A stretch of 64,000 nt of DNA, taken from the NCBI GenBank assembly GCA_963520015.1, contig CAUQPM010000014.1, forward strand, positions 2,484 through 66,483, in the 5' to 3' direction. Each line of letters starts with the position of its first letter. Position 1 is the first letter of the stretch. Below the pieces are notes generated by a model that did not search any database, was not told the DNA's origin, and was given only the letters and a program-made list of their open reading frames with translations. Source of the DNA: an uncultured Oscillospiraceae bacterium. Its GTDB lineage: Bacteria; Bacillota; Clostridia; Oscillospirales; Acutalibacteraceae. The position numbers and the translations under genes were made by a program. Shown piece by piece: positions 13,218 through 64,000 of this stretch.

Positions 13218-14991
13218 GGTTTGGCAGCCCCCCTTCCTCATCCGTAAGCGGGGCATTGGAGAACGGCATCGTAATGTACGTTATCGTGCCAATGTTTTCT
13301 GCGCTTTTGATCTCTAGCCCATATTCTTCGCCGTAATACAATTTAATCCGTTTATTCACATTGGCAATTCCAATGCTGTCATCGTTCGTTGCCTGTGTCA
13401 GTTTACGAATCCGGTCCAGTTTTTCCCCGGGGATTCCCACACCGTCGTCTTTCACTTCAAAAATAATCTTATTTTCTTCATGCCAGCCTTTGATCATCAG
13501 ATGTGCCTTTCCGACTTTATCCTCAATGCCGTGAATAATCGCGTTTTCTACAATCGGCTGAATAATAAATTTAGGAACCACACAGTCCAAAATGCTTTCC
13601 TCTATCTGGATATCAACATCAAACTTATCGCTGTACCGTACTTTTTGAATGGCAAGGTAATTTCCGATCAGACTGATTTCTTCCGAGATGAGCACGGAAT
13701 CCTTTTGATTGCGGATACTGTTTTTTAGCAGTTTACCAAGCTGTGAAACGATCAGTACAATGTCGTCCACACCGTTGAGCTTCGCAAGCCACTTGATGGA
13801 GTCAAGTGTATTATAGAGGAAATGCGGATTGATCTGTGCGTACAGAGCCTTTAGTTCTGCCATCCGTAATCGATTCTGCTTTTCCAAGTTGGTCGCAAAG
13901 AGCTCGTTCAGGTTGTCAAGCATTGAATTCAGACTTTTGCCTATGTACCCGAATTCATCATTGTTTTTAAGCGAGACACGTGCATGAGTATCTCCGTCCT
14001 GAACTTTGTTCATTGTACGCACAATCGCGTTCAGCGGCTTAGTCAGGCTCCGTATAATGATAGGGGACAGAACTAAACACAGTAAAATCGCGGCCATAGC
14101 AACCGCAAAGGTAGTAACCATAATGTAATTGCTGTTAATCACTACCAAATCAACAGGGATGGACGATATTACCCGAAGCGGATATTCACCTTTTGTCGTA
14201 TTCCAAGTGATAAATCGCTGCGGATCTTTCAAGTAAAGCTTTCTGGTTTGTTCTGAGGAAGTCATTTGATTTCGAAATTCTTTATTCAAAAAGGTTTCGT
14301 TCAAAGCAATGAAATTCTCATCGTACAGAAGGTAATTGTTTTCATCCACAATCGTGTAACGAATGGGAAGTGATACGTTGACCGCATCAAGAGCTGTTTG
14401 AAAAACATCCGCGGGGATATCAATAATCGCATACGCGACGATTTCTCCGTGCTGCTTAATACTGTGCGCGACTGCCATGGAATAACTTTTCCCAGTCTGT
14501 GAAACATATCGGTTCGAATAGGTAACCGTATCGTCCGTTAAGTTGATTTTGCGGAAAACGCCCCAATCACTGTGGTTCTTTAAAGTATAAACCTCCGGTA
14601 TTACAGAGGTTGAAATTTGGAACGTTCCGTCTGCCTTAATTACATGCATTGCAACTTTCGTGGACTTACCCGCAAGCAGGATATACATTTTTTGATAAAT
14701 ACTGGTACGGCTGCTTTCTGTAACTTGATTTGTGCTGATCATATTGATGATTTCATTGTCCGTGCAAAAATAGGAAAGAGCGGACTTGTATTCCCCAACG
14801 GTGCGTTCTAGGCTTGATGTGGCATTGTTGACGGTATTCATAGCCTGATACTCAACATTGCGCATGGAAACGTTTGATGAAATGATGTAAGTGAGTGTTC
14901 CAAGCAAAGCTACAGGAACAATGCTGATTACTGCAAAACAGATAAAGAGCTTTGCAAAAAAGCTGATTTTACTTTTCTTTTCAGAACGCAT
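13210..14991 (-). CDS. Sensor histidine kinase (YesM/LytS-type, extracellular Cache-like domain + HAMP)
   Basis: Two TM segments flanking a ~250-aa loop; QINPHFLYNTL, QPIVENAIIHG and DDGVG. Confidence 0.92.
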   Translation of the reverse strand: MRSEKKSKISFFAKLFICFAVISIVPVALLGTLTYIISSNVSMRNVEYQAMNTVNNATSSLERTVGEYKSALSYFCTDNEIINMISTNQVTESSRTSIYQKMYILLAGKSTKVAMHVIKADGTFQISTSVIPEVYTLKNHSDWGVFRKINLTDDTVTYSNRYVSQTGKSYSMAVAHSIKQHGEIVAYAIIDIPADVFQTALDAVNVSLPIRYTIVDENNYLLYDENFIALNETFLNKEFRNQMTSSEQTRKLYLKDPQRFITWNTTKGEYPLRVISSIPVDLVVINSNYIMVTTFAVAMAAILLCLVLSPIIIRSLTKPLNAIVRTMNKVQDGDTHARVSLKNNDEFGYIGKSLNSMLDNLNELFATNLEKQNRLRMAELKALYAQINPHFLYNTLDSIKWLAKLNGVDDIVLIVSQLGKLLKNSIRNQKDSVLISEEISLIGNYLAIQKVRYSDKFDVDIQIEESILDCVVPKFIIQPIVENAIIHGIEDKVGKAHLMIKGWHEENKIIFEVKDDGVGIPGEKLDRIRKLTQATNDDSIGIANVNKRIKLYYGEEYGLEIKSAENIGTITYITMPFSNAPLTDEEGGLPNHD

Positions 14992-15063
14992 ATCATCACC
15001 ATCCATCAGTTAATCACGTATTTTACTAATTATAGTTCCAGGGCGGCAGTCGATACAATTGCA

Positions 15064-15096
15064 AGAGGGGAGCAGGCAGTATTGCCTGTTCCCTCT
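15064..15096 (-). terminator. Stem-loop after ABC permease
   Basis: AGAGGGGAGCAGGCA / TGCCTGTTCCCTCT. Confidence 0.6.
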
Positions 15097-15126
15097 ATAA
15101 AGCATTGGAATTTCGATGATAGTTTT

Positions 15127-16797
15127 TTATACGACGGAAACCTTACCCTTGCTCACCCAGTTGAACAGCAGCAGCGACAGAATGGTGGCAACTGTTAAAA
15201 TGGAAGCCAAAGCCGCGGCTGTGCCGAAGCTCGAACGAACAACCTCCGTGTAAATTGCCACTGAAATAGTCGCTGTTTTTCCGCTGTACAGCATAACACT
15301 TGAGCTAAGTTCATTAATGGTGGTAATCCAGCTTAATATTGCACCGGACAGCACGCCGGGTGCCATCATACGCGCAGTAATCTTGAAGAAGGTACGCATC
15401 GGCGACACCCCAAGGTTAATCGAGGCTTCCTCAATACTGGGGTCTATTTGGTATAGAAGAGCGCTGCTGGAACGAATCGTATACGGCATTTTTCTTATTA
15501 CATATGCGATAATCATAATTGCGGCTGTCCCTGACAGCATCAGCGGGGGTTTGTTAAAGGCGACCAGCATGCTGATACCTAAAACAGCGCCCGGAATAAC
15601 ATATGGGAACATCAGGAGCAGGTCCAGCGCGCCGCTGATTTTGCTTTTCTTTTTTACAACAAGGTACGATAAGAGCATACCAAAAATTATGATAATAATA
15701 ATTGCGATAATGGAGTATGAAAAGGTATTCATAATATTTTTGGAAAGTTTATAGAAGATCTTTTCGTAGCTTTCCAGACTGAATCCCTTCACAAAAATAG
15801 GCCCGCTTGTTTTCACGAAGGAGGTTATCACAACAACAATCTGCGGCAAAAAGGCGATAAATGCAACAAGCATGCAGACAGCGGTCAGAAGGAACTTCTT
15901 GCCCTTTGAAACTTCTTCCACAACGGGAGGCCGCATGGATGTCATTGTGTAGCTTTTGCGTGAAACCACATATCTTTGAATCAACAGTACAGCGGTGGAG
16001 CAGCAAATAATAATAACACTGAGTGCGCCCGCCATGTTGGCGTTGCCGCCCATTTCGCTCATGTATTCCTCGTAAACTAAAACAGGAAGAACTTTATAGC
16101 CTTCCCCAATCAGCATCGGGGTCCCAAAATCAGCCAAGGAAGACATGAACACCATAATTGCACCGGCTGCCAAAGTCGGCATAATAACAGGCATGGTAAT
16201 GGTGAGGATTCTCCTCAGTTTACTGGAGCCAAGGTTTTCGGCGGCTTCCTCCAGGGAGCGGTCAATGCTCGACATTGCTCCGGAAACGTACAAATAAACA
16301 TAAGGGAAAAACTTCAGGGTAAACACCAGCACAATTCCGCCAAAGCCATAAATCGGCGGAGTGGTAATCCCGATTTTATCAAACAGATTTGTAATGGCGC
16401 CGTTCCGGCCAAGCAGCATAATCCACGAATATGCGCCGATAAAGGGTGGCGACATCAAAGACATGATAATCAGCATATTAATGGCTTTTTTCCAGTAGAT
16501 ATGAAACCGGCTGGTTATGTATGCGAGCGGAACGCCGATCAGAACCGCGAAGATAGTGGCAAGTGTCGAAGTGGCCAAACTGTTTTTTAAGGTGCGGAAA
16601 TAATAGGCCTTTGTAAAAAATGTTTTATAAAACTGCAGGGTGAAGGAGCCCTCGCTGCTGGTAAAGCTATGTAGTATAATAGAGAAGAACGGGAAAACCA
16701 AAAATACAACCAGCAGAAGTAGGGATGCGTATTTTACGACATTCCAAAAATCGAAATAGCTTTTAATACTTTTTCCGGAAGCCTTTTCGGCATTCAT
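15127..16797 (-). CDS. ABC permease, FbpB/AfuB-type (duplicated TM domain)
   Basis: Two EAA motifs (LEEAAENLG, IEEASINLG); DFGTP. Confidence 0.9.
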   Translation of the reverse strand: MNAEKASGKSIKSYFDFWNVVKYASLLLLVVFLVFPFFSIILHSFTSSEGSFTLQFYKTFFTKAYYFRTLKNSLATSTLATIFAVLIGVPLAYITSRFHIYWKKAINMLIIMSLMSPPFIGAYSWIMLLGRNGAITNLFDKIGITTPPIYGFGGIVLVFTLKFFPYVYLYVSGAMSSIDRSLEEAAENLGSSKLRRILTITMPVIMPTLAAGAIMVFMSSLADFGTPMLIGEGYKVLPVLVYEEYMSEMGGNANMAGALSVIIICCSTAVLLIQRYVVSRKSYTMTSMRPPVVEEVSKGKKFLLTAVCMLVAFIAFLPQIVVVITSFVKTSGPIFVKGFSLESYEKIFYKLSKNIMNTFSYSIIAIIIIIIFGMLLSYLVVKKKSKISGALDLLLMFPYVIPGAVLGISMLVAFNKPPLMLSGTAAIMIIAYVIRKMPYTIRSSSALLYQIDPSIEEASINLGVSPMRTFFKITARMMAPGVLSGAILSWITTINELSSSVMLYSGKTATISVAIYTEVVRSSFGTAAALASILTVATILSLLLFNWVSKGKVSVV

Positions 16798-17879
16798 GAA
16801 AATACCTCCGTTCCGTCTTCGCTGAATACGCTGATTTTATCCGGGTTGAAGTGCAGACATACTTTATGGCCGATATCGCGGATAAAATCAATATCTTTTG
16901 TATATTCGTTTGCTTCAACGACTTGGCCGTTTGCCAGCTTGACTTCATAATTTGCAAAATCCCCAAGGAAAGTATACATCTGAATTTCACCGGGAATCCC
17001 TATGCCGTCAGGGTCGTTTACGATAAACTGCTCTGGCCTGACTGAAATTTTAATCGGCCCTTCGACCTTTTTTTTCAGCTTCACAGAAAATTCCATCCCG
17101 GACTTCAGTTTTATGTGCGCGGTCATGTCAGGATCAAACTTTTCAACGTACCCTTCCATAAAGTTGGAAGTTCCTATAAAACCGGCGACGAATGTGTTCC
17201 GGGGCTTTTTATAAATGGTGGCGGGGGAATCAATCTGCATGATACGGCCGGCGTTGATAATTGCAATTTTATCGGAGATTGCAAGCGCTTCTTCCTGATC
17301 ATGAGTTACATAAATTGTAGTAATGTTCAGTTCTTTTTGCAGCTTGCGAATAATTGTCCTCATTTGAACACGCAGTTTTGCGTCCAGATTGGATAATGGT
17401 TCGTCCATAAGAAGAACGCCCGGCTTTATGACGATGGCCCTGGCAAGGGCAACACGCTGCTGCTGACCGCCGGAAAGTTCGGACGGTTTTCTGTCTTTCA
17501 AATCTTTGATCTGTACCAGTTCAAGCGCTTCCATCACTTTTGGGGCAATCTGCTCTTTCGGCACCTTACGGGCTTTCAAACCATAGGCCACATTATCGAA
17601 AACCGTCATATGCGGGAAGATTGCATAGTTTTGGAACACCATTCCGATGTCGCGTTTATAGGCTTCTATATTGTTAATTACTTTGTCGTCAAAATAAATT
17701 TTTCCGCCGTCAATTGTATTAAATCCTGCAATCATTCTAAGCAGGGTGGTCTTTCCGCAGCCGGAAGGCCCAAGCAGGGTAAAAAACTCTCCCTGCTGAA
17801 TTTCACACGAAATATCATTTACCGCGATGAAATCATCATACCTTTTTACTACATTACAAATCTTAACACTGTGGCTCAA
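16794..17879 (-). CDS. ABC ATP-binding subunit, FbpC/AfuC/PotA-type
   Basis: GPSGCGKTT, LSGGQQQR, MDEPLSNLD and a TOBE-like C-terminus. Probable TTG start after AAGGGG. Confidence 0.92.
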   Translation of the reverse strand: MSHSVKICNVVKRYDDFIAVNDISCEIQQGEFFTLLGPSGCGKTTLLRMIAGFNTIDGGKIYFDDKVINNIEAYKRDIGMVFQNYAIFPHMTVFDNVAYGLKARKVPKEQIAPKVMEALELVQIKDLKDRKPSELSGGQQQRVALARAIVIKPGVLLMDEPLSNLDAKLRVQMRTIIRKLQKELNITTIYVTHDQEEALAISDKIAIINAGRIMQIDSPATIYKKPRNTFVAGFIGTSNFMEGYVEKFDPDMTAHIKLKSGMEFSVKLKKKVEGPIKISVRPEQFIVNDPDGIGIPGEIQMYTFLGDFANYEVKLANGQVVEANEYTKDIDFIRDIGHKVCLHFNPDKISVFSEDGTEVFS

Positions 17880-18042
17880 TCTGCTCAACCCCTTTAAACT
17901 TACACTGTGATTGTGAGTGATAGAAAACAACTTTAATAATGCGTGATATAAATTGCGTGCAGACGCTGAGGTATCTCCGACGTCCGCACGCAGCTTTTAC
18001 ATTTTACTGAATTCTTTGAAAGCGATTATGTACCATTCTTGA

Positions 18043-19104
18043 TTAACCCACTACGACTTCTTTCCATTTTTCCATAATCTCTGTTTTTTGTGAGGATGCC
18101 CATGCGAAATCATAGTCTACTAATTTAATATTTTTCATCACAGGAACGCCCTTAGGAGGATCAGTATCCAATCTTACGCCTCTTCTGGCGAAATCGTTCG
18201 CCATCATGGTCTGGCATTCTTTGCTAAGTACAAAGTTCATGAAAGTTTCTGCATTTTCTTTGTTTTTGCAGCCTTTTACGATTGCAATACCGTCCGGAAC
18301 AGCTGAAGTGCCTTCTGACGGGTATACGATTCCAACGTCTGCGCCGGCCTGAACATATTTAATTGCTTCTTTTTCAAGTGTTAAGCCAACGCTATATTCT
18401 CCGTCGGAAACCTTCTTGTAAACATCGCCGGAGGAGCCGAGAATCTTGCCATCCAAATTGGACACAAATTTCTTAATGAAATCCCATCCCTTACCGTCAT
18501 CTTTACCGAATGCAGTCAGCATGGTGCAGAGAATTGTATAGGACGAACCGGATTTTGCAGGGTCGGCATATGCGATTTTTCCTTTAAATTTCGCGTCGAT
18601 CAGGTCGCCCCAACCCTTGGGGACATCGTTTTCGCCTACCAGCTTTTTATTGTACATCAGAACCATCGGCAGCGGGGATTCGCCTGTCCACAGGCCGTCA
18701 GTACTGACATATGTCTTATCAATGCTGTTAATATCGGTCGGTGTGAACTTATCAAAATATTTACCGTATGCTGCAAGTGAGTCGGCACCGCCGCCCCAGA
18801 ACACGTCGCAAAGAGGGCTGCTGCTTTCAGCTTCGATTCTCTTTAATAATTCACCGGTTCCTGCCGCTACTACGTCAACTGTAATACCGGTCTTCTCCTG
18901 AAATTCTTTTACGCCTGCATTTAACGGGTCTGCCGGGTGAGGGGAATAAACTGTTACATGTTTGGAGTTTGGTTCTTGGGGAGCCGCCTGGCTGGCCTCG
19001 GCTTTGCTTTGTGCTGCGGATGCTGTGCCGTTCGAGCTGCTGCATCCGGCAAACACTCCAGCGATCATTGTTACCGCTAAAAGTGCGCTGAGTATCCTTT
19101 TCAT
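18043..19104 (-). CDS. ABC substrate-binding lipoprotein, AfuA/FbpA-like family
   Basis: Lipobox VFAGC; GTGELL, DVFWGG, DPAKSGSS and VYPSEG; GGAGG RBS. Confidence 0.88.
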   Translation of the reverse strand: MKRILSALLAVTMIAGVFAGCSSSNGTASAAQSKAEASQAAPQEPNSKHVTVYSPHPADPLNAGVKEFQEKTGITVDVVAAGTGELLKRIEAESSSPLCDVFWGGGADSLAAYGKYFDKFTPTDINSIDKTYVSTDGLWTGESPLPMVLMYNKKLVGENDVPKGWGDLIDAKFKGKIAYADPAKSGSSYTILCTMLTAFGKDDGKGWDFIKKFVSNLDGKILGSSGDVYKKVSDGEYSVGLTLEKEAIKYVQAGADVGIVYPSEGTSAVPDGIAIVKGCKNKENAETFMNFVLSKECQTMMANDFARRGVRLDTDPPKGVPVMKNIKLVDYDFAWASSQKTEIMEKWKEVVVG

Positions 19105-19290
19105 AATCAATGTCCTCCCAATCAATATTTTTAGAATGCACGGGATCAACCTGTGTTTCATGTCATAATTATTACATTTTGAATTTGTGAATACAATGTG
19201 ACAGTACTGTACTTTTGTAGAGTATTCTATCATATTAACCAAAATAAGTCTTATAATGATATAAAACTGTGCAAATTGATATATTTTAAC

Positions 19291-51903: not shown

Positions 51904-52920
51904 TTAGCTTTGGCTGTTCTTTTCAAAGAAGGTAATCTCAAACTGGTATGTAATGCTTTGCTGGGGGTTCAGATATTTCAGTGAGTTTTGTTCCACTGCC
52001 AGCTCGTGACCGTCCAGCAGGGAGTTCATCGGTTCAAGCCCCATCACGTATTCGCCTTTGCCGAACATCTTCCACTGGCAAAAATGATCCAATTTTTCCG
52101 CATCAAATTTTACCTTAACGCCAATGTCCAATTTTGGCTGATACAATGAGTAGGAAGAAAACCCTTTTTCGTCTTTTTTTAATGTGTGGAAATAACACAT
52201 TTCTTCAAAATCATCTTTTGGGGCTTCGATTTTATTCCAGTCCTGCACATGCTCTGCCGCGTGAAGATTACGGGGGTTGACATTTTCGGAAGGAAGCGAA
52301 AGTTCAGCATCCTCATCCAGCATGGGATAACCAAAATTAAAATGGTATAACAGCATAAATGGAATTTTTTGAAACCCGTGATTGGTTACCGTATCTTCCA
52401 GACGAATTTGATTTTTACTATAGGGAATGGTAATTTTACGGTTTAGGGAAAGATTTTCGCCGAACAGCACAGCTTCCTTCATTTTACCGGATAAAACAGC
52501 GGTCGGCAAACCCTCGATGTCTTCGCAGGAGCAGTGGAACTGGTCGGCGGGTGTGTTTGAAAGTCTGCCATGCATTCCGTACTCTTTACCCTGATAGACA
52601 TCGGGAGCACCGATGTTCTGCAATCCGCATGTGGTGAGGAATCCTACATAAAAATTACGTAAAAATTTATCGCCGCTGTCATTAAAATATTGGGGTGAGG
52701 CAATGCCGCAGGGGCTCAGGTAGTTGATATTGTGCCCCTTAAATCGGACCTGATAAAAATCCATGCAGCGGTCGGGAAGAATCGTGGCTTCGAGCCCTGC
52801 GCCGTTATTGATTTCGACAACGTGCACACCCTCCTGGCGCCCGCCGATCAGGCGGCCCTCCTGAATGGAGATAAGCTGAGAAACGTCACCGATATATTCC
52901 AGCTGATTATGAAAATCCAT
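51904..52920 (-). CDS. Aldose 1-epimerase family protein (DUF4432-like)
   Basis: PDRCMD, FLTTCGL, HGR, LYHFNFG and YVMGLEP. Confidence 0.85.
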   Translation of the reverse strand: MDFHNQLEYIGDVSQLISIQEGRLIGGRQEGVHVVEINNGAGLEATILPDRCMDFYQVRFKGHNINYLSPCGIASPQYFNDSGDKFLRNFYVGFLTTCGLQNIGAPDVYQGKEYGMHGRLSNTPADQFHCSCEDIEGLPTAVLSGKMKEAVLFGENLSLNRKITIPYSKNQIRLEDTVTNHGFQKIPFMLLYHFNFGYPMLDEDAELSLPSENVNPRNLHAAEHVQDWNKIEAPKDDFEEMCYFHTLKKDEKGFSSYSLYQPKLDIGVKVKFDAEKLDHFCQWKMFGKGEYVMGLEPMNSLLDGHELAVEQNSLKYLNPQQSITYQFEITFFEKNSQS

Positions 52921-52937
52921 AAAGATCTTCCTTTCCG

Positions 52938-53792
52938 TTACGCTCGGCCCACACTTCCAAAGATTCGCATTTTTTCAAGAGTCGCCTGTTTAATCGCTTC
53001 TGTGATTGCCGGCATTACGTCCGTCATGCCGCTGCCCGTTTTGTAGTTGTCGTGCACCGCTTTTGCCGCCGCACAGTTAATGTCTGTAAAGATATTCACT
53101 TTGGAAACGCCGCAGGCAATTGATTTTTTAAAATCCTGTTCAGATAATCCGGAACCGCCGTGAAGGACAATCGGAGCGGTTACCATTGAGGCAATAACCC
53201 TCAATCGCTCAAAATCGAGCTTCGGGGTGCTTTTATAAGCGCCGTGAGCAGTACCGATGGCCACAGCCAACGCATCAACTCCGGTGGCTTTGTAAAAATC
53301 CAATGCTTCCTGCGGCTCTGTATAAATACTGTTGTCGCTGCTTTCAGAGTTTACCCCTTCCGCGCTGCTTGCATTTGCTCCAACGTGACCTAATTCCGCT
53401 TCTACGGTGATACTCCTTAAGTGGGCGGTTTTTACCATGTTGGCTACCTCTGTACTGTTGTCTTCAAAGCCAAGTGTGGAACAGTCGTACATAATGGAGG
53501 AGAAGCCCAAATCCATGGCGTGCAGAATAGCATCCTTTGTCAGTCCGTGATCAAAGTGAACAACGACCGGCACAGTGGCTTTTTTAGCGAGAGGGATTAA
53601 GAAGGAAGCAAGATCATCCAGACCGGCAAAGGGCAAAAGCACTTCCGCGGTGCCGATAATTACAGGGGAACGGCTTTCTTCAGCAGCAGCGAGCACGCCT
53701 TTCGCCATTTCAAGGTTTACGGTATTGAACAGACCTACACCGTATTTTTTCTGTTTGGCATCCTGCAAAACTTCGTTCAAATTAACAAGCAT
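52938..53792 (-). CDS. Class II fructose/tagatose-bisphosphate aldolase family
   Basis: HFDHG, VEAELG, AIGTAHG, VLHGGSG and KVNIFT. Confidence 0.93.
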   Translation of the reverse strand: MLVNLNEVLQDAKQKKYGVGLFNTVNLEMAKGVLAAAEESRSPVIIGTAEVLLPFAGLDDLASFLIPLAKKATVPVVVHFDHGLTKDAILHAMDLGFSSIMYDCSTLGFEDNSTEVANMVKTAHLRSITVEAELGHVGANASSAEGVNSESSDNSIYTEPQEALDFYKATGVDALAVAIGTAHGAYKSTPKLDFERLRVIASMVTAPIVLHGGSGLSEQDFKKSIACGVSKVNIFTDINCAAAKAVHDNYKTGSGMTDVMPAITEAIKQATLEKMRIFGSVGRA

Positions 53793-53794
53793 GA

Positions 53795-54346
<552 letters not shown>

Positions 54347-54361
54347 TCATCCTTTCAAATA

Positions 54362-55306
54362 TTATAATAATGGGTGTTCCTCCATAAATTGAAGTGTTTC
54401 GGAAATGGATTTAATGCCGGTTGAAGCACCGATTTCCATAACACAGTGCGTACCGACCGCGTTCGCAAATCGGCCGCATTCGCGGTAATCCCAGCCCAAA
54501 GACAGGCCGCACAGGAATCCTGCACAGAAGGAATCCCCGGCTCCGGTTGTATCCACAGGTTTTACAGAGGCATAGGTCGGTAATATGTAGCGGCTGCCAT
54601 TCTGCTCACAGATGTATGCGCCGTCTTTGCCCAACTTAATAATAATGTTTTTGGCTCCCAATGCGAAAAAGGTGTCTGCAATTTTTGAAATTTCCGTTTC
54701 TCCCGAAATTTTGGCGGCTTCCTCGTAGCTTGGCATAAACAGGTCAAGGGACTGAATGGATTCTTTTACTTTTGGCAACCAAATTCCGTCCAGATCAAAA
54801 GCGGTGTCCATTACGGTGTATTTGCCCGCCTGCTGTGCCCGACGCAGAAAATCAGCGCAGGGGCTGCCGTCAAACGCGGTAAGGATTAACGCACCCGCAA
54901 CAAATACAATGTCACTGTCAGCAAAGCATTGCTCCGGGATATCCTTTGCAAAGAAGGCAGATGTGGAACCGGGGTTGTATAACATGCTGCGCTCACCGCT
55001 GGAATTAACACAAACAACGGATGCGGTCGTGCTTACGGAGGGATCCTTCGTCACCCCGCCGACATCAACACCGGCGGCTTTGGCGGTTTCAACCACAAAG
55101 CTTCCGAAATTGTCCTTTCCCACTTTGCAGCACAGGATGGGGTAAGCGCCAAGTTTTGCCAAGTCGATCGCGGCATTGGACGCGCAGCCGCCCACATGTG
55201 TTGTCACGGTTTTTACGCTGCTCATGGTGCCCGGTGAGGGGATGCTGTCCGCTGGGGAAACAATAATGTCTGTGGTCACGCTTCCAATGCAAAGAATTTT
55301 TTTCAT
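54362..55306 (-). CDS. PfkB family carbohydrate kinase
   Basis: GGCASNAA and VDTTGAGDSF. Confidence 0.93.
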   Translation of the reverse strand: MKKILCIGSVTTDIIVSPADSIPSPGTMSSVKTVTTHVGGCASNAAIDLAKLGAYPILCCKVGKDNFGSFVVETAKAAGVDVGGVTKDPSVSTTASVVCVNSSGERSMLYNPGSTSAFFAKDIPEQCFADSDIVFVAGALILTAFDGSPCADFLRRAQQAGKYTVMDTAFDLDGIWLPKVKESIQSLDLFMPSYEEAAKISGETEISKIADTFFALGAKNIIIKLGKDGAYICEQNGSRYILPTYASVKPVDTTGAGDSFCAGFLCGLSLGWDYRECGRFANAVGTHCVMEIGASTGIKSISETLQFMEEHPLL

Positions 55307-55388
55307 GTTTTCACTTCCTTTCAATAATAGTTCATATAGTTCATAAAACGGTTTGACAAAGAAAGATTGGGTAATCTTATAAAAACAG

Positions 55389-55480: not shown

Positions 55481-56650
55481 GTGCACGAAAAACCCGGAAT
55501 GAACAGTCAAAATTTAAAATATAAAAACAGAGGGTTGCTGCTTAAGCTGATTTGTACCAGTGAGGAGCCGTCAAGAATTTTACTTTCACAGCTGACCGGT
55601 CTTACAAAAATGACAGTGACAAATATTATTGCAGAGCTGATTGAAAAAGGCTATGTGGCGGAAAGCGCAACCAGTTGCAATGCCAGTGTGGGAAGAAATC
55701 CCATCACGTTGACGATTGCATCCTCCGCTCCTAAAATTCTGGGGATTCATCTTTTTCGTGACGGCTGCTATGCTATGCTTTTTGATATGAAACTGCAGGT
55801 TCTGGCGGAAGAAATGGAGCCGTTCGAAGCGGAAACGGAAGAAACTGTGCTCGAAAAGTTGTTTCGTGTGACAGACCGGATTTGTAACAAAGAGCAAAAT
55901 ATTCTCGGCTGCGGTGTATCCGTCATCGGCCCGCTGGACGTGACAAGCGGTACTGTTTTAAATCCGCCGAACTTTTTCGGAATCGAAGATTTGCCATTGG
56001 AGCAAATCTTGACTGAACGTTATCACATACGGGTGACAGTGAACAACGATATGAACAGCGCAGCTCTTGCTGAAAAGTTATACGGTAAGGGAAGGCGGTA
56101 TCGAAATTTTTTATATGTCGGAATTTCCAACGGTATTGGTTCGGGCATTATCGCGGATGACAAACTGTATCAGAACAGCAGCGGGTTTGCCGGGGAACTT
56201 GGGCATACCAGCATAAACTATCAGGGGGAACAGTGCAGCTGTGGCCGCCGGGGCTGTTTGGAGTGCTATATCAGCAAACCGGTTATATTGAAAAAGCTGC
56301 AAAAAGCAACAGGACTGAAGCTGACCTTCCGCGAATTCTGTTCCATGTCGGAAGATTCCGGCGTAGACAAAATTTTAATTGATATGATTGATCAGCTATC
56401 GCACGCACTTGTCGATCAAGTCAATATGCTGAATCCGCAGATGATATTCATCGGCCATGAAGGCTCTTATCTGCCAAATAAATATATTGAACGGCTGAGA
56501 AATGAGGTTAACCTCAAAAAGTTTTCACAGAATTACTTGCAGGTTGGGGTGGAAAAATCACTTTTTGGCTTTTTGGCACCTCTTTATGGAAGTGCATGTC
56601 TTGTACTGGATCGCTTTTTTGAAAGCGGCGAACTGAAAAAAGAAGAATGA
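55481..56650 (+). CDS. ROK family transcriptional regulator (HTH + ROK)
   Basis: N-terminal SRILLSQLTGLTKMTVTNII and GRNP; GELGH and CSCGRRGCLE. Confidence 0.92.
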   Translation: MHEKPGMNSQNLKYKNRGLLLKLICTSEEPSRILLSQLTGLTKMTVTNIIAELIEKGYVAESATSCNASVGRNPITLTIASSAPKILGIHLFRDGCYAMLFDMKLQVLAEEMEPFEAETEETVLEKLFRVTDRICNKEQNILGCGVSVIGPLDVTSGTVLNPPNFFGIEDLPLEQILTERYHIRVTVNNDMNSAALAEKLYGKGRRYRNFLYVGISNGIGSGIIADDKLYQNSSGFAGELGHTSINYQGEQCSCGRRGCLECYISKPVILKKLQKATGLKLTFREFCSMSEDSGVDKILIDMIDQLSHALVDQVNMLNPQMIFIGHEGSYLPNKYIERLRNEVNLKKFSQNYLQVGVEKSLFGFLAPLYGSACLVLDRFFESGELKKEE

Positions 56651-56795: not shown

Positions 56796-57773
56796 ATGAT
56801 TGTGGTTGGTGTTGATATCGGCGGAACCAAATGTGCGGTCAATCTGGGCGAAGTTTCAGCGGACAACGCCTTTGTGATTCATAAGTGTAAAATCAGAGAA
56901 ACAAAGTCGTATTCTCCGCAAAAAATGTTGGATGGATTAGTGGAGGATATTTTATTCTGCGCGACAATGTTGGACGGTTCCCAACAAATACAGGGAATCG
57001 GAATCAGCTGCGGCGGCCCGCTGGACAGCAAAACAGGAACAATCCTTTCACCGCCGAATCTTCCCGGCTGGGATGATATTCATATTACAGATTACATAAA
57101 CGAAAGAACCGGGTTCCCCACGTGGCTTTGTAACGATGCCAATGCCTGTGCCCTTGCGGAATGGAGGCTGGGCGCGGGAAAGGGCAGTTCCAGCATGGTT
57201 TTTATGACCTTTGGCACAGGGCTTGGGGCAGGTATCATCTTAAATAGCAGGCTGTACAGCGGGGCTTGTGACATGGCGGGTGAAATTGGGCATATCCGTC
57301 TTTCTGACTATGGTCCAACGGGATATGGAAAAACAGGCTCCTTTGAAGGGTTCTGCAGTGGCGGTGGCATTGCACAACTGGCAAAGTCAATGATTCTTGA
57401 AGAATTCCAGTCAGGGCACAAGGTTGAGTTCTGCAACGGTTCTGAGGAGTTGAAAGATATCACGGCTGCCAAAGTTGGCATCGCGGCGAAAAACGGAGAT
57501 TTGCTGGCTTGTAAAATACTAAAGCTGGTTGGTTTACAGCTGGGCAAAGGACTGTCGATTCTAATGGATTTATTAAATCCGGAGTGCATCGTTATTGGGA
57601 GCATTTTTGTGCGGAACTATGAAGAAATATGGCCCTATGCCCAGAAGGTAATTGAAATGGAAACATTGCCTGACGTCCGAAAGGCTTGCAGGATTTTGCC
57701 AAGCGAACTGTCGGAGTCAGTTGGGGATATTGCCGGGTTAATTGTTGCTGGCTACAACCTTGGATTGGAGTAA
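56796..57773 (+). CDS. ROK family sugar kinase
   Basis: GVDIGGTK, NDANACALAE and GEIGH; no HTH. Confidence 0.92.
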   Translation: MIVVGVDIGGTKCAVNLGEVSADNAFVIHKCKIRETKSYSPQKMLDGLVEDILFCATMLDGSQQIQGIGISCGGPLDSKTGTILSPPNLPGWDDIHITDYINERTGFPTWLCNDANACALAEWRLGAGKGSSSMVFMTFGTGLGAGIILNSRLYSGACDMAGEIGHIRLSDYGPTGYGKTGSFEGFCSGGGIAQLAKSMILEEFQSGHKVEFCNGSEELKDITAAKVGIAAKNGDLLACKILKLVGLQLGKGLSILMDLLNPECIVIGSIFVRNYEEIWPYAQKVIEMETLPDVRKACRILPSELSESVGDIAGLIVAGYNLGLE

Positions 57774-57776
57774 TTT

Positions 57777-58424
57777 ATGAAAGAACGTACCATGCGTCAC
57801 TGTGATCATTTTTTTGAACTGCATCAGGACTTACTGCCGTTAAAAGAAAAAATACTGACTGTTTGTAATGTCCTTCTGAATGTGTACTGTAACGGAGGCA
57901 AAGTTCTGATTTGCGGAAACGGCGGAAGCTGTGCGGACGGCGACCATATTGTCGGGGAACTTATGAAAGGTTTTTTATTAAAAAGGCCTTTGAATAAAGA
58001 GATAAAAGATCAGTTTGAACAATATTATGGCGCTGAAGGCGCTTTGGCTGCGGAAAAGCTGCAGTGCGGGCTTTCGGCGATATCGCTTAACGCCCACGCT
58101 GCGTTGATGTCGGCTTTTTCCAACGATGTGGACCCTGAACTGGTTTATGCCCAGCAGGTGATGGGTTACGCAATCAAGGGAGACGCCGTAATCGGAATCA
58201 GCACTTCCGGCAATGCGGCCAATGTTGCATATGCGCTAATGGCTGCAAAGACGGTGGGGGCGGTTCCCATTGCCCTGACCGGACGGGACGGCGGAAAAAT
58301 AGGAAAAATTGCGGATTTCAGCCTGATTGCCCCGGAAGAAGAAACCTATCGTATTCAAGAGTATCACCTGGCCATTTACCACTTAATTTGTGCTTATGTA
58401 GAGTCGGAAATTTTCCCATGCTAA
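57777..58424 (+). CDS. gmhA: SIS-domain phosphoheptose isomerase (GmhA-like)
   Basis: ICGNGGS, FSND, ISTSGN, LTG and RIQEYH. Confidence 0.8.
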   Translation: MKERTMRHCDHFFELHQDLLPLKEKILTVCNVLLNVYCNGGKVLICGNGGSCADGDHIVGELMKGFLLKRPLNKEIKDQFEQYYGAEGALAAEKLQCGLSAISLNAHAALMSAFSNDVDPELVYAQQVMGYAIKGDAVIGISTSGNAANVAYALMAAKTVGAVPIALTGRDGGKIGKIADFSLIAPEEETYRIQEYHLAIYHLICAYVESEIFPC

Positions 58425-58458: not shown

Positions 58459-60075
58459 ATGATTAAGGTCATAATCGCAGATGATGAAGAGAATGTATGT
58501 CAGCTGATTCGCGGCCTGATTGATTGGAATTCGCTTGGTATGGAAATTGTGGGGGTCGCCCACAACGGAGTTGAGGCTTTGGACATGATTAAAGCGCTCT
58601 CGCCCGAACTGATGATTACAGATATCCGTATGCCGGGTTATGACGGGCTGGAAATGATTCAGCGAGCCAAAATAATAAAGGACGATTTGGATTTTATTAT
58701 AATCAGCGGTTACAGCCATTTTGAATACGCGCAGAATGCAATCAAATACGGCGTGGGCGATTATCTTTTAAAACCGATTAAAAAAGACGATTTTTTGGCT
58801 GCGCTCAATAAGATGCGTGACAGATATATTCAACGAACGGAGCAGCTGAGCAACGAAGAACGTTTAAAAAATCAGCTGAAAATTGATGCGATTAAACTGC
58901 GCTCCAATCTGTTTACGGAGCGGCTGCTGAAAAAAGGTATGACCACAGAAGACCAGACTCTGGATACAATCAATGAAACTTATCATTTCTTTTTTCAGCC
59001 AGGCCTTTTTCAAGTATGTGCGGTTAAAATTGATTGCGGATTCGAGGATCAGTATAACAATACCATTCAAATTTTAGAAGAGAAGGTCATGCGCATTTTA
59101 AATAGTCTTCTAAAAGAACATTGTCACGAAATGGAAATTTATGCGGATGACAGCGTTACATACTGTGTTCTGAATTTTGATGCCATTCATAAAAAAACAA
59201 TAAGGAAACAGATGAAAGCGGTATTTGACGATTTGATGGTGCAAAAAGTCGCATTTGAACAGCATGAATTCACGATTGCCGCGGGTACGGTGGTCGATGA
59301 TGTCAAACAGCTAAAAGAGTCTTTCCGGACGGTAAGGTATGCAGTCGGACAGAGGCTCCTTTTAGGAACGGGCAGGTTTATCGAAGACATCACAATGCAT
59401 GTCGAATCTCAAAAGGAAGGCGCATTGCTGGCGGAATTGAATAAAACGATGGGCGCGGCTCTTGAAGTGCTCGACAAGGATGCTGTAATGAACTGTATTC
59501 TCGGGCTGAAGCAGCAAATAGAAACGGAAAATCTTTTGAGTGGACAGGAAATCGTTTCCTTATCCCATCATGTTTGCGAAATGTACTTAACGCACCTTCG
59601 TAACAATCAAATTCAAATTCAGTACGGCGACGAATTTTACGAGAAGTTCTGTATTCATGCCGACCGTTGCAGTTCCATTGGGCAGCTTTTTGAATATTTG
59701 TCCGTCATGGTGGGGGAATCGCTTGAAGTAATCATTGAAGATAAAAGGCAGCTGGATACGAAACCTATCCGCCTTGCAAAGCAGTATATCCAGCAAAATT
59801 ATATGAAACTAATCAGTTTAGAGGAAGTCAGCAGCTACGTTGGCTTTAATCCAACCTATTTCAGCACATTGTTTAAAAAAGAAAACGGCAGCAATTTTGT
59901 TGATTATATTTCCGAAATCCGCATGAATAACGCTAAGGAGCTCTTGAGGGAAACAAATTTAAATATTGCCGTAATCTGTGATAGGGTTGGATACAACGAT
60001 TTAAAGAGTTTTACAAAGAGTTTTAAGAAAAACGTAGGATTAAAGCCAAATGAATACCGTAAGTTATATTCTTAA
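58459..60075 (+). CDS. Two-component response regulator, REC + central domain + AraC HTH
   Basis: IADDE and TDIRMP; PTYFSTLFKKE and VGYND. Confidence 0.92.
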   Translation: MIKVIIADDEENVCQLIRGLIDWNSLGMEIVGVAHNGVEALDMIKALSPELMITDIRMPGYDGLEMIQRAKIIKDDLDFIIISGYSHFEYAQNAIKYGVGDYLLKPIKKDDFLAALNKMRDRYIQRTEQLSNEERLKNQLKIDAIKLRSNLFTERLLKKGMTTEDQTLDTINETYHFFFQPGLFQVCAVKIDCGFEDQYNNTIQILEEKVMRILNSLLKEHCHEMEIYADDSVTYCVLNFDAIHKKTIRKQMKAVFDDLMVQKVAFEQHEFTIAAGTVVDDVKQLKESFRTVRYAVGQRLLLGTGRFIEDITMHVESQKEGALLAELNKTMGAALEVLDKDAVMNCILGLKQQIETENLLSGQEIVSLSHHVCEMYLTHLRNNQIQIQYGDEFYEKFCIHADRCSSIGQLFEYLSVMVGESLEVIIEDKRQLDTKPIRLAKQYIQQNYMKLISLEEVSSYVGFNPTYFSTLFKKENGSNFVDYISEIRMNNAKELLRETNLNIAVICDRVGYNDLKSFTKSFKKNVGLKPNEYRKLYS

Positions 60076-60089
60076 ACTGAGGTACGAAA

Positions 60090-61115
60090 ATGAAAAATAA
60101 AAGTACAAGGTATCTCTCCTACCGTATCGCGTGGATGTCGGCAATCCTGTTTGCATTGGTTCTTGTTCTCCTTATCATTCTGACAGTCATCGCAATTCAG
60201 AATCAGGATTATCTGGTTTTGGTTCTTGGCGGATATTTATCGCTGATTGTTGCAGCACAGGTCTTTTATAAGTGGATTTATCGGCCTTATAAGGGGAGTG
60301 CAAAGGTACTGCGGCTTTTTGTAACAGGCTACACAATCCATGGCCTCTTTAGCCAGAGCATATTTTTCAGCCCCGAAATCGAAGAGGTTACGAAAAAAGT
60401 TCAGGAAATTATGAATACGGATGAACTTTTCAACGCAACGAAAAAGCAGGCGCAATACCTTGCCTTGCAAAATCAGATTAACCCGCATTTTCTTTACAAT
60501 ACCCTCGAGGGTATCCGTGGGGAAACATTAAATGCAGGTCTGGAAAATGTAGCCAAAATGACGGAAGCGTTGGCTACATTTTTTCGTTATACCATTTCAA
60601 ATGTCGAAAATTTGGTGACACTGGAAGATGAACTGACCAACGTGAATAATTATTATATTATTCAGCGTTACCGTTTCGGCGAGAGACTTAACCTAAGCGT
60701 AGAATACGACACGGAAAATGAAATGGAAATCATGTCGTACAAACTTCCAAAGCTGACACTGCAGCCCGTTGTAGAAAATTCCATTTATCACGGAATCGAG
60801 CGTAAGATTGGAAAAGGAAACGTACATATTAAAATCGAAACAACAGCGACGCGCTTGATTATTACCATATCCGATAATGGAATCGGGATGACAGAGGAGA
60901 GGTTAAGGGAGATTGATGAGAAACTGAACCGCACAACATTGGAATATATTAAACCCGACAGTGAGGCTCACAGTGGAATTGCCGCTGTCAATGTGAATAA
61001 CAGAATCAAGCTTTTGTTCGGCGAGGAATACGGAATTTGCATGTACAGCACATCAAACGTAGGCACGGATGTGGAAATCACGCTGCCGCTGATAAAAAAG
61101 GATATAAAAGAATGA
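60090..61115 (+). CDS. Histidine kinase (YesM/LytS-type core, 2 TM, no extracellular domain)
   Basis: QINPHFLYNTL, QPVVENSIYHG and DNGIG; only 341 aa. Confidence 0.9.
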   Translation: MKNKSTRYLSYRIAWMSAILFALVLVLLIILTVIAIQNQDYLVLVLGGYLSLIVAAQVFYKWIYRPYKGSAKVLRLFVTGYTIHGLFSQSIFFSPEIEEVTKKVQEIMNTDELFNATKKQAQYLALQNQINPHFLYNTLEGIRGETLNAGLENVAKMTEALATFFRYTISNVENLVTLEDELTNVNNYYIIQRYRFGERLNLSVEYDTENEMEIMSYKLPKLTLQPVVENSIYHGIERKIGKGNVHIKIETTATRLIITISDNGIGMTEERLREIDEKLNRTTLEYIKPDSEAHSGIAAVNVNNRIKLLFGEEYGICMYSTSNVGTDVEITLPLIKKDIKE

Positions 61116-61116
61116 A

Positions 61117-62583
61117 ATGAAAACTGAAATTTTACGGCTCGAAAAAGTCACTACAATTCAAGATGAGGTTACTCTGCTGGATAATTTCAATCTGCACATT
61201 TTTCAGAGCGAAATTATGGGGCTCGTCTGCTTAAACGCAAATGGGAAAGAGTCTTTAATTCATCTTATCAGCCAGAATTTGCCCATACATTACGGACGTG
61301 TTTATTTTAACGAGGTACTCGTAAATAATTATCAGCACAGTCCGCTTACAATGAACAAAGTAGCCGTAATTGAACAGAAAAGTAAACTGATTGAGGATTT
61401 AAGTGTTGCTGACAATGTGTTCGTGTTGCGCAGGGGCTTTAAAAAGTATTTTATCAATCCCCGCGTCCTGAATGAGCAGCTGCAGCGGTTTACCAATGAG
61501 CTGGGGGTGCATATCGACGGAAACGAATTGGTAGCAAAGCTGAGTCCTTATGAAAAGAGTGTGGTTGAACTTTTACGCGCAGTGATTATGGGCGCAAAGC
61601 TTATTGTAATAAGGGATATCAGCAACTGCGTCAGTGCGGCGGACCTTGCGAAATTCCATAATATCTTAAGGTATTACTGCAAAAAAAACTTTTGTTTTCT
61701 CTATATCTGCAATCATCATGAAGAAGCGTTCAAAATATGTACAAGGGTATCCCTGATGAGAGACGGCAAAATATTAAGGGTATTCAATCAGGATCAGTTT
61801 CAAAATGACAATTTGACTCCGTATTATATCGGCGAATTTGCAAACGTGAAGAAAACGATTGTGAATAACCACAGTCAGGAGGGAATACTGACTTTTCAAA
61901 ATGTTTGCACGGAAAATTTAAACCATATGTCATTTGCAGTGGCAAAGGGCGAATGCACTGTATTATTTGATATGGACAATACTATATTATCGGACATTAT
62001 GCAGCTGATGAATGGCCAGCTGCAGCAGGACAGCGGAACTGTTTTTTTAGAAAATAACGTTTATTCACAAAAGCAGGCGCGGCATGCGGTGGGAAGCGGA
62101 GTGGCTTTTATCGGTGAAGATCCTGTTCGAACAATGCTTTTTAAAGAAATGGATTATGTCAATAATCTATGCTTTCTGCTTGACAAAAAACCGAATTCGG
62201 TAAGATTAAATCAAAAAATCTTAAAAAATGTTATTCAGGAATATGAACCTGTTGTGGGCAAAGAAATCTATGAAACGAATATTATGAATTTAAAATTGCA
62301 GTCGCTATATGATTTAATATATTACAGAATTCAGTTATGCCGCCCAAAAATTGTTTTCTGTGTGCAGCCGTTCGCGGGTGCCGACATGTACCTAAGGCGG
62401 CATTTAGTGGATTTAATCAATAAACTCAAAAAAAAGGGAATCACGGTGATTCTTCTTGCGGTAAATATTGCGGATTCATTAGTGATAGCGGACAAACTGA
62501 TTCTGCTGGAACAGGGCCGATTCAACAGCGAATATTCCAGATCGGAATTTCATCTTTTCAGCGATCAGGGAATTGTAATTTAA
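61117..62583 (+). CDS. Degenerate tandem sugar-ABC ATPase-like protein (probable pseudo-ATPase)
   Basis: RbsA-like length and layout (LSVADNVF), but the Walker A, signature and Walker B motifs are degenerate in both halves. Confidence 0.75.
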   Translation: MKTEILRLEKVTTIQDEVTLLDNFNLHIFQSEIMGLVCLNANGKESLIHLISQNLPIHYGRVYFNEVLVNNYQHSPLTMNKVAVIEQKSKLIEDLSVADNVFVLRRGFKKYFINPRVLNEQLQRFTNELGVHIDGNELVAKLSPYEKSVVELLRAVIMGAKLIVIRDISNCVSAADLAKFHNILRYYCKKNFCFLYICNHHEEAFKICTRVSLMRDGKILRVFNQDQFQNDNLTPYYIGEFANVKKTIVNNHSQEGILTFQNVCTENLNHMSFAVAKGECTVLFDMDNTILSDIMQLMNGQLQQDSGTVFLENNVYSQKQARHAVGSGVAFIGEDPVRTMLFKEMDYVNNLCFLLDKKPNSVRLNQKILKNVIQEYEPVVGKEIYETNIMNLKLQSLYDLIYYRIQLCRPKIVFCVQPFAGADMYLRRHLVDLINKLKKKGITVILLAVNIADSLVIADKLILLEQGRFNSEYSRSEFHLFSDQGIVI

Positions 62584-62652
62584 AACATAGACAGTTAAAT
62601 AAATTATTTTTAACATGTTTTACTTTTATATGCAAAGAACATAAAAAAACAG

Positions 62653-62714
62653 AAGATGCACCCCATAATTCAAAATCTGCCCCCCTTATGGAGAGGAAAG
62701 ATCGATGCTATACT
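62653..62714 (+). promoter_or_regulatory. Activator-dependent promoter with 21-bp-spaced direct repeat
   Basis: AAGATGCACCCCATA / AATCTGCCCCCCTTA, then TGc-TATACT. Confidence 0.5.
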
Positions 62715-62762
62715 TATAACATTGAAACGGGTTCCAGAGAAATAAGGATAGGTGGATTTTTT

Positions 62763-64000
62763 ATGGGGGAATACATAGCTGAACTGAATCACATTAATAA
62801 AAGTTTCCCGGGCGTTAAGGCACTGGACGATGTATCGTTTAATCTAAAGGCTGGGGAAGTTTTAGCTCTGCTGGGTGAAAACGGGGCAGGAAAATCAACT
62901 CTTGTAAAAGTCTTGAGCGGTGTTTATACAAGGGATGACGGTGAAATGAAAATCTTTGATCAAGAGATAGGTGATTTATCGCCTAAAAAAGCACAGGAAC
63001 TGGGCGTAGCGATTATTCACCAGGAATTGAATATGTGCGCACACCTTTCCGTGGCGGAGAACATCTTTTTAGCACGCGAAAAAACACATTCCGGGATTCT
63101 TTCTAATAAGGAAATGAATAAAGATGCAAAGGCCATTTTAAATCGGCTGAATATTGACATTGACCCTACAACTATAGTCGGCGATTTGGCGGTACCGAAG
63201 CAGCAAATGGTTGAAATTGCAAAAGCGCTTTCCACTGATGCAAAAATCCTGATCATGGATGAACCTACGTCAGCATTAACCTCAAATGAAATTGATGATT
63301 TGTTTAATATCATAAGAAAGCTGAAAGCAGAGGGCTGCGGCATTGTTTACATCTCTCACCGGCTGGAGGAATTACAGTATATCGTTGACCGTGTAACAAT
63401 CATGCGTGACGGAAAATACATTACATCAATGAATTTTGCGGATACCAATATGGGCGAGATTATTTCCAACATGGTAGGTCATGAAATTAAAGAGAAATTC
63501 CCTCGGGTCAATTGTAAACGGGGCAAAAAAATATTTGAGGTAAAAAATCTAAATGCAGGGAAAATGGTGCGCGATATTAATTTTGATCTTTATGAGGGTG
63601 AAATTGTCGGCATCGCCGGTCTTATGGGCGCAGGACGAACAGAAACGACCAGAGCTATTTTCGGAGTGGACTTAAAAGAGTCCGGTGAAATTTTTTTAGA
63701 TGGCAAAAAAGTAACGATAAATAAGCCGATAGATGCAATTCGTGCCGGAATTGTACTTGCCCCGGAAGACCGGAAAAAGGACGGATTGTGTGTCAAATTA
63801 AGCATACGGGATAATATCGCTTTACCGAATCTGGACCTTGTGTGCAGTAAATTCGGGATCGTTGACAGAAAAAAAGAAAAGACAATGACAGATAAAGCAG
63901 TCAGCAGCCTGTCGATTAAACTGTCCACCGCAGAGGCGGACGCAGGAACTCTGTCAGGCGGCAATCAGCAAAAAGTGGTTGTTGCAAAATGGCTGGCACG
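62763..64000 (+). CDS. Sugar ABC transporter ATP-binding protein, RbsA/MglA-type (3'-truncated; absent from ORF track)
   Basis: My translation gives MGEYIAELNHINKSFPGVKALDDV...GENGAGKST...MDEPTS...ISHRL...GLMGAGRTE...LSGGNQQKVVVAKWL, open to the window end. Confidence 0.93.
   Translation, partial: MGEYIAELNHINKSFPGVKALDDVSFNLKAGEVLALLGENGAGKSTLVKVLSGVYTRDDGEMKIFDQEIGDLSPKKAQELGVAIIHQELNMCAHLSVAENIFLAREKTHSGILSNKEMNKDAKAILNRLNIDIDPTTIVGDLAVPKQQMVEIAKALSTDAKILIMDEPTSALTSNEIDDLFNIIRKLKAEGCGIVYISHRLEELQYIVDRVTIMRDGKYITSMNFADTNMGEIISNMVGHEIKEKFPRVNCKRGKKIFEVKNLNAGKMVRDINFDLYEGEIVGIAGLMGAGRTETTRAIFGVDLKESGEIFLDGKKVTINKPIDAIRAGIVLAPEDRKKDGLCVKLSIRDNIALPNLDLVCSKFGIVDRKKEKTMTDKAVSSLSIKLSTAEADAGTLSGGNQQKVVVAKWLA

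Follow-up and report, generated by a model that had tools for sequence, protein, structure and literature searches.

A sensorless histidine kinase and a degenerate CUT2-type ATPase encoded beside a sugar importer in Bacillota: a candidate transporter-based signalling module

In the BceRS-BceAB system, as in VirAB-VirRS-AnrAB, a kinase with two transmembrane (TM) helices and no extracellular sensor depends on an ATP-binding cassette (ABC) transporter and switches on a transporter operon, and in the structure the cytoplasmic part of BceS moves toward the ATPase BceA (PMC7828314, PMC6978683, PMC10314905). In PstSCAB-PhoU-PhoR/PhoB, an importer acts by way of a non-transporting cytoplasmic linker on a kinase that has no periplasmic sensor (PMC6978683), and in XylFII-LytS-YesN of Clostridium beijerinckii a sugar-sensing kinase with a third component controls the operon of a xylose ABC importer (PMC8050422). 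The locus described here resembles these systems in part. It lies at the end of a 64,000-nt stretch (the window) of contig CAUQPM010000014.1 from an uncultured Oscillospiraceae bacterium, and consists of a response regulator, a short histidine kinase and a 488-aa ABC protein without catalytic motifs (the pseudo-ATPase; together, the triad), followed by the gene of an intact ATPase of the CUT2 type. The pseudo-ATPase is very probably a third component of the kinase system.

Each of the known systems differs from this locus. Bce is concerned with antibiotics and pairs an active ATPase with BceB, a large permease that carries a 200–250-aa loop, whereas the present system combines a PF06580-type kinase and a receiver-AraC regulator with a binding-protein-dependent sugar importer; its permease is of the 343-aa CUT2 type, and a separate, degenerate ATPase is linked to the kinase. 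In Pst, PhoU, which is not a nucleotide-binding domain (NBD), bridges the active PstB to the kinase, but here the linker would be a dead ATPase copy and the importer is CUT2. The kinase and regulator classes of XylFII-LytS-YesN match those found here; there, however, a dedicated binding protein acts on the extracellular domain of the kinase. The present kinase lacks a domain of this sort, and its third component is a cytoplasmic pseudo-ATPase. The CUT2 tandem ATPases RbsA, MglA, XylG and AraG share length, tandem NBD fold and profile with the pseudo-ATPase, which differs from active enzymes of this type in lacking a working composite site, in its identity of only about 20–23% and in forming a separate tree group. 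The system works like Bce or Pst-PhoU co-sensing without being a member of Bce, Pst-PhoU or XylFII-LytS. No description of a dead ABC ATPase in kinase signalling was found in the open-access literature (subscription journals were largely outside the scope), and the module is real, conserved and apparently undescribed.

The degenerate ATPase and its conservation

The pseudo-ATPase reading frame was full length and uninterrupted, as claimed in the preliminary description, and all altered motifs quoted there were present: CLNANGKES at residue 38, VIRD at 164, CNHH at 198, FDMDNT at 284, LKLQSL at 392 and FCVQP at 414. CUT2 ATPases normally rely on a single working site, in which Walker A, Walker B and the H-loop of the first NBD (NBD1) combine with the signature of the second (NBD2). 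The intact neighbour shows this pattern and itself carries GLMGAGRTE as NBD2 Walker A and LAVPKQQ as NBD1 signature; degeneration at these two positions, the first of which was part of the earlier case for motif loss, is normal for CUT2. The informative losses are those of the composite site, i.e. the NBD1 Walker A serine (GKST to GKES), the Walker B DE (to RD), the H-loop histidine (to Asn) and the NBD2 LSGGN (to LKLQS). Judged from these motifs, the ATPase activity of the protein has presumably been lost.

The best NCBIfam match of the protein was RbsA, at 166 bits against a cut-off of 745. A family scan matched ABC_tran, with a hydrolase model below cut-off and no match to the PhoU family. 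The predicted model (predicted local distance difference test score, pLDDT, 89; predicted template modelling score 0.83) matched tandem ABC NBD folds, and a fold search with it returned generic tandem ABC folds only.

A homologue search yielded 339 proteins, 120 of them listed at 50–100% identity; the nearest named relatives among the matches listed were from Caproiciproducens (82% identical). Within these 120, query included, the Walker A serine was glutamate in 97, the Walker B aspartate was arginine or lysine in 111, and the H-loop histidine was asparagine in 101. By profile search the family comprised at least 150 clusters at 50% identity. Among the 140 full-length cluster representatives listed, none had a Walker B DEP, three kept a canonical Walker A, and four contained the word LSGG, each time off the signature position. 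As a control, Walker A, Walker B and signature were all intact in the 17 active CUT2 ATPases of the genome (17/17). A tree of 75 sequences, a quick search only and with long branches, had a single branch (support 100) parting 55 degenerate from 20 active proteins. A deeper profile (A3) was rejected as a family counter: all 26 new loci checked were active enzymes, and since A3 also matches ordinary ATPases, its matches in 255 of 401 genomes do not measure how common the family is. No family member was present in the plasmid collection, where the best pseudo-ATPase match reached 24% and the best kinase match 38%.

The three Walker A keepers were placed nearest the active enzymes in the tree, and such deep members look like evolutionary intermediates. 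P0253, P0263 and P0264 are deep members that keep a canonical Walker A while Walker B and signature are gone, and a member of the Walker A-keeping kind at L126:1534-3015 is preceded by the same regulator and short kinase.

The pseudo-ATPase had a median ratio of nonsynonymous to synonymous substitution rates (dN/dS) of 0.077 (range 0.04–0.20; 16 independent, non-overlapping pairs); the corresponding values were 0.085 (kinase), 0.068 (regulator) and 0.044 (intact ATPase, 13 pairs). It was 20% identical to the adjacent intact ATPase and 23% identical to another ATPase of the genome; the 20% identity and the separate tree group rule out a recent duplicate of the adjacent gene. Retention rather than decay, as proposed earlier, is borne out by the dN/dS of about 0.08, by the gene order and rate covariation given below, and by the absence of the pseudo-ATPase from paralogous importers run by a LacI repressor. 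The 488-aa protein is therefore well supported as a retained signalling component. The opposite view, that of a decaying, functionless copy of the neighbouring ATPase, could appeal to broken frames in 3 of 52 loci, but is virtually untenable given this dN/dS, the at least 150 clusters at 50% identity, the group of its own in the tree and the confidently folded model.

Across the wide family, the phosphate-handling motifs had conservation values of 0.24–0.44, average or below, which argues against a shared new ligand pocket. In the closest listed homologues C38 was kept in 103 of 120, C198 in 119, H200 in all 120 and H201 in 117, and across the wider family the same positions scored 0.35–0.44, near the mean of 0.42. 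A universal new ligand or metal pocket made of CNHH and C38 was rejected, because these residues vary in the wider family; within this subfamily alone, the four residues (window 61228-61719) might make up a metal or redox site. The segment following the Q-loop lines the groove for the permease coupling helix in type I importers (MalFGK2-type structures). In NBD1 it was as conserved as in active ATPases (0.60 vs 0.60) and still similar to them. The Walker A residue Asn40 was Asn or Asp in 118 of 141 sequences, and Pro418 and Asp423 of the NBD2 D-loop were also kept; these residues would preserve the NBD-NBD contact.

Gene order and the partnership with the kinase

Scanning species genomes yielded 56 loci, of which 52 were kept for the synteny count; L053 (a chimera of topoisomerase and kinase tail) and L054-L056 (partial matches of 22–23%) were dropped. 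L131 and L133, which matched weakly and in part, were likewise removed from the metagenome set. The check proposed earlier, for shared gene order and dN/dS below 1 among orthologues, gave the order regulator-kinase-pseudo-ATPase in all 52 loci, alongside the median dN/dS of 0.077. These loci belong to Bacillota, namely Oscillospiraceae, Lachnospiraceae, Clostridium, Paenibacillus and relatives of Bacillus. In a scan anchored on the kinase, the pseudo-ATPase came next after 8 of 8 non-self matches, in 7 of 300 genomes of the bacterial family. The spread is patchy, with the module in 5 of 400 other genomes of the phylum. Tight coupling within the window triad was confirmed (gaps of 14 and 1 nt), and across loci the spacing between kinase and pseudo-ATPase genes ran from -11 to about 80 nt. 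No triad in the 52 loci contained an extra binding-protein gene.

The cognate ATPase gene lay within the locus in 47 of 52 cases, the other five comprising three contig edges and two insertions. The permease was present in 4 of 4 genomes checked, being 8–13 kb away in the two with insertions, and the kinase-pseudo-ATPase linkage was kept despite this displacement. Ten non-self genomes of the family had the cognate permease, and seven of them a kinase match. One more, G205, had the pseudo-ATPase where its contig ends; the permease was present without any member of the pseudo-ATPase family in G036 (99% complete) and G212 (74% complete). In two genomes, another importer of this subfamily (77% identity in the ATPase, 70% in the permease) was encoded next to a LacI repressor and an AGE-type epimerase; kinase, pseudo-ATPase and repeat were all missing from the locus (L149, L150), and at L148 an importer of this subfamily had no two-component genes nearby, no pseudo-ATPase and no repeat. 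Transport by these paralogous importers thus does not need the pseudo-ATPase.

Distant modules were found with other importers. In G113, the second triad comes after mglBAC and a pair of long genes, one of which encodes a GH3-type glycosidase. In L128 the pseudo-ATPase is upstream of a third type of CUT2 importer, and regulator and kinase come directly after the importer. The distant triads L094 and L126 are on contigs that begin inside the regulator gene.

The kinase has two hydrophobic helices with a loop of about four residues between them, according to hydropathy and the predicted model, confirming the earlier statement that an extracellular sensor domain is missing. The long kinase with which it had been contrasted does exist, but occupies 13210-15006 of the minus strand (598 aa) and not 13210-14991. 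The present kinase is the sole short one among 17 PF06580 kinases of the genome (341 aa vs 574–676), with 128 residues before the H-box compared with 374–474 in 13 others in which the motif was located. In an alignment of 49 orthologues, H133 lies in the dimerisation and histidine phosphotransfer domain (DHp), with the H-box QINPHF in PF06580, followed by HATPase_c. A helical segment is, in our reading, HAMP-like, and no family match shows it. Conservation rose from 0.35–0.36 in the TM helices through 0.57 in the HAMP-like part to 0.88 in DHp. Intramembrane ligand sensing is unlikely, as no TM column is conserved; the helices look like anchors, and the input probably arrives from the cytoplasmic side. 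A 274-aa orthologue (L043:6167-6988) has just one hydrophobic helix, at its N terminus, and lacks the HAMP-like segment; regulator and pseudo-ATPase genes still flank it.

Branch rates of the pseudo-ATPase covaried with those of the regulator (0.78) and the kinase (0.66), and not with those of the ATPase (0.07), the permease (-0.23) or the binding protein (-0.27), using 52 of 73 branches from 37 loci and the window. A complex predicted from the pseudo-ATPase and two copies of kinase residues 80–335 scored 0.34 vs 0.00 for the best control, with runs agreeing in at least 95% of contacts and a partner pLDDT of at least 78. The mark used was reached by 116 of 157 solved pairs and 2 of 215 mismatched pairs, and the range up to 0.60 held 18 of these solved pairs and both mismatches, so the prediction weakly suggests a contact with the kinase. 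One of the 120 listed homologues, P0099, is an in-frame fusion of kinase and pseudo-ATPase, the only one among them.

Importer promoter, sugar and locus layout

Upstream of the intact ATPase are two 19-bp repeat copies, 21 bp apart (consensus CnAAAnnnnnCCCCnTWA), the second overlapping the expected -35 position (Table 1). Such spacing and -35 overlap are typical of AraC-type activators. A model trained on 18 other loci scored 43 bits at the window site, the best in the 3.69-Mb genome (next 20). Scores of at least 13, which occur at 8 per ten million positions of genome background, were reached in 45 of 52 loci, including 28 of 35 outside the training set. Where the importer is displaced (L063, L064) the repeat travels with it, and no such scoring repeat was found at the importer loci without a triad (L148-L150). 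The repeat is likely the binding site of the response regulator. The -10 element TGCTATACT was missed by a consensus promoter scan because it has no -35 match, and the sigma-70 scan as a whole performed at chance level (20 found vs 18.3 expected).

Weaker matches to the repeat pair (about 19–20 bits) at G000:C7:154518 and G000:C20:14287 may be further targets or chance. One good half-site upstream of mglB (L087:8931-8994), at the distance from TATAAT seen in the main family, hints that the second G113 triad controls mglBAC. In L012, L014 and L019 (near 8470), no more than about 15 nt separate the stop codon of the pseudo-ATPase gene from the start of the first repeat copy.

The sugar is probably D-mannose or D-lyxose. 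Of the 38 loci that extend at least 900 nt past the binding-protein gene, 14 had a member of the D-lyxose/D-mannose isomerase family; a mannose-6-phosphate isomerase occurred in 2 of 59 loci. Searches of solved structures with the binding protein did not name the ligand (best match E 3e-27). The E. coli lmu island (LmvK/LmvR-lmuKAIZYX), which allows growth on lyxose and mannose, likewise combines a CUT2 importer, a D-lyxose/D-mannose isomerase, a PfkB kinase and an aldolase under two-component control; LmvK, however, is a large hybrid kinase, and no pseudo-ATPase is annotated in the island (PMC10128022). The Lmu importer proteins are 28–42% identical to those here, and at this identity orthology is unsupported.

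The downstream position of an intact ATPase paralogue was confirmed, and just past the window edge it is followed by the permease and a sugar-binding lipoprotein (322 aa). In the response regulator, D55 is at the usual phospho-acceptor position. The remaining genes in Table 1 lie upstream of the triad.

Table 1. Features of the locus, with positions in the window
Feature	Position	Strand	Basis or remark
Response regulator, receiver + C-terminal AraC-type helix-turn-helix (YesN-like), 538 aa	58459..60075	+	PF00072, PF12833
Histidine kinase, LytS/YesM type, 341 aa	60090..61115	+	PF06580 + PF02518 (HATPase_c)
Pseudo-ATPase, tandem-NBD CUT2 (RbsA/MglA-type) ABC protein without catalytic motifs, 488 aa	61117..62583	+	
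Two 19-bp direct repeats, predicted response-regulator site	62650..62689	+	conserved in alignment, top genome match
Extended -10 element TGCTATACT of importer promoter (predicted)	62706..62714	+	conserved alignment columns
Intact CUT2 ABC ATPase, 505 aa, continues beyond window edge	62763..64000	+	
ROK-family repressor-like protein	55481..56650	+	PF00480
ROK sugar kinase	56796..57773	+	relatives in 40/52 related loci
SIS-domain sugar-phosphate isomerase, GmhA-like	57777..58424	+	below family cut-off
Divergent catabolic operon: PfkB kinase, D-lyxose/D-mannose isomerase, class II aldolase, DUF4432 protein	51904..55324	-	

In our reading of the sequences, apparent myo-inositol catabolism genes lie directly upstream of the regulator in L096:13736-19999 and L014:1-4161, and a conventional YesM/YesN-like pair is found in the window at 12429-19242, downstream of an apparent iron-type ABC transporter (permease, ATPase and binding protein). 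Most Lachnospiraceae loci (L020-L045, e.g. L029:12073-13905) encode a sugar-binding lipoprotein of about 615 aa with two Peripla_BP_4 domains, a tandem duplication.

Models of signalling

The preliminary description regarded the pseudo-ATPase as a retained adaptor that links the state of the sugar permease or binding protein to the kinase. Of this, the retained signalling component stands; binding to the kinase is weakly suggested by the predicted complex (0.34), and the pseudo-ATPase would read the permease or binding-protein state. In the mechanism proposed here, the pseudo-ATPase would replace the working ATPase on the permease, giving a non-transporting receptor of binding protein, permease and pseudo-ATPase. 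A sugar-loaded binding protein would then shift permease and pseudo-ATPase so that the latter touches the cytoplasmic part of the kinase and switches it on, and the phosphorylated regulator would activate the importer operon from the 21-bp repeat. Docking on the permease is favoured by the combination of a retained post-Q-loop segment, lost phosphate motifs and kept residues of the NBD-NBD contact. That the pseudo-ATPase docks on the permease, relays binding-protein occupancy and activates the sensorless kinase has, in our view, an even chance of being correct.

Several observations weigh against this proposal or against parts of it. The NBD2 post-Q segment is conserved yet unlike that of active ATPases (BLOSUM 0.37 vs a mean of 0.57). 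No dedicated second permease was seen in the loci examined, and the pseudo-ATPase would therefore compete with the working ATPase. The model does not explain how the permease would change shape without nucleotide cycling, and in the Bce model it is ATP hydrolysis that starts signalling (PMC10314905). The rate covariation does not extend to the permease and is higher for the regulator than for the kinase, and since shared operon history can yield such covariation, it is no proof of contact. The P0099 fusion is a single cluster and could stem from the change of one base where the two genes usually overlap, and searches of longer proteins revealed no further kinase/pseudo-ATPase fusions. Finally, the three broken frames (L002, L005 and L006) all come from metagenome assemblies; two of these assemblies also break other genes, but the neighbours in L002 are whole.

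A rather unlikely alternative is that the kinase-bound pseudo-ATPase is itself a cytoplasmic sensor, binding the imported sugar, a sugar phosphate, a nucleotide or a metal in its repurposed cleft, with no sensory part for the permease. The poor conservation of the kinase TM helices relative to DHp agrees with this, as do the L043 kinase, which retains a pseudo-ATPase with only a single TM helix and no HAMP-like segment, the rates following kinase and regulator rather than permease, the new cleft residues that are nearly fixed in the 120 closest listed homologues, and the three deep members with a canonical Walker A. The cleft residues are, however, not kept across the wider family, one family serves at least three different importers, and ABC NBD folds are not known to us to contain a sugar-binding site.

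It is quite unlikely that the pseudo-ATPase acts as a partner switch, inhibiting the kinase (or holding it in phosphatase mode) until sugar draws it onto the permease. The sequestration of MalT by MalK is a precedent, the tight translational coupling would suit an inhibitor made in a fixed ratio, and the weakly predicted kinase contact and the retained post-Q segment are compatible with such a switch; but none of the results gives the sign of regulation, and the covalent fusion, if real, better fits a stable complex.

It is very improbable that the pseudo-ATPase belongs to the importer, as a subunit for transport or its regulation, and only shares a transcript with the two-component genes. The pseudo-ATPase is nearly always near a CUT2 importer, and in L128 it is upstream of the importer and separate from regulator and kinase. 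Against this, importers of the same subfamily (ATPase 64–77%, permease 64–70% identical) lack it where such a kinase is missing, and displacement of the importer leaves it next to the kinase.

Returning to the proposed docking mechanism, its broadest form is that these modules are widespread sugar sensors of Bacillota, in which an importer has been rebuilt as a receptor: a nucleotide-independent pseudo-ATPase on the permease would couple occupancy to the kinase, one permease would serve in transporting and signalling complexes, and the module would have been re-wired to several importers. We hold this tentatively, at a little short of even chances.

Current annotation wrongly calls the third gene a ribose transport ATPase, and the repeat at 62650-62689 provides a ready reporter promoter. 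Known transporter co-sensors use a working transporter; a dead, signalling-only ATPase, if true, would uncouple sensing from transport and reveal whether substrate binding can be transmitted through a permease that runs no ATP cycle. A family of sensorless kinases in gut, rumen, soil and fermenter Bacillota would thereby gain an input.

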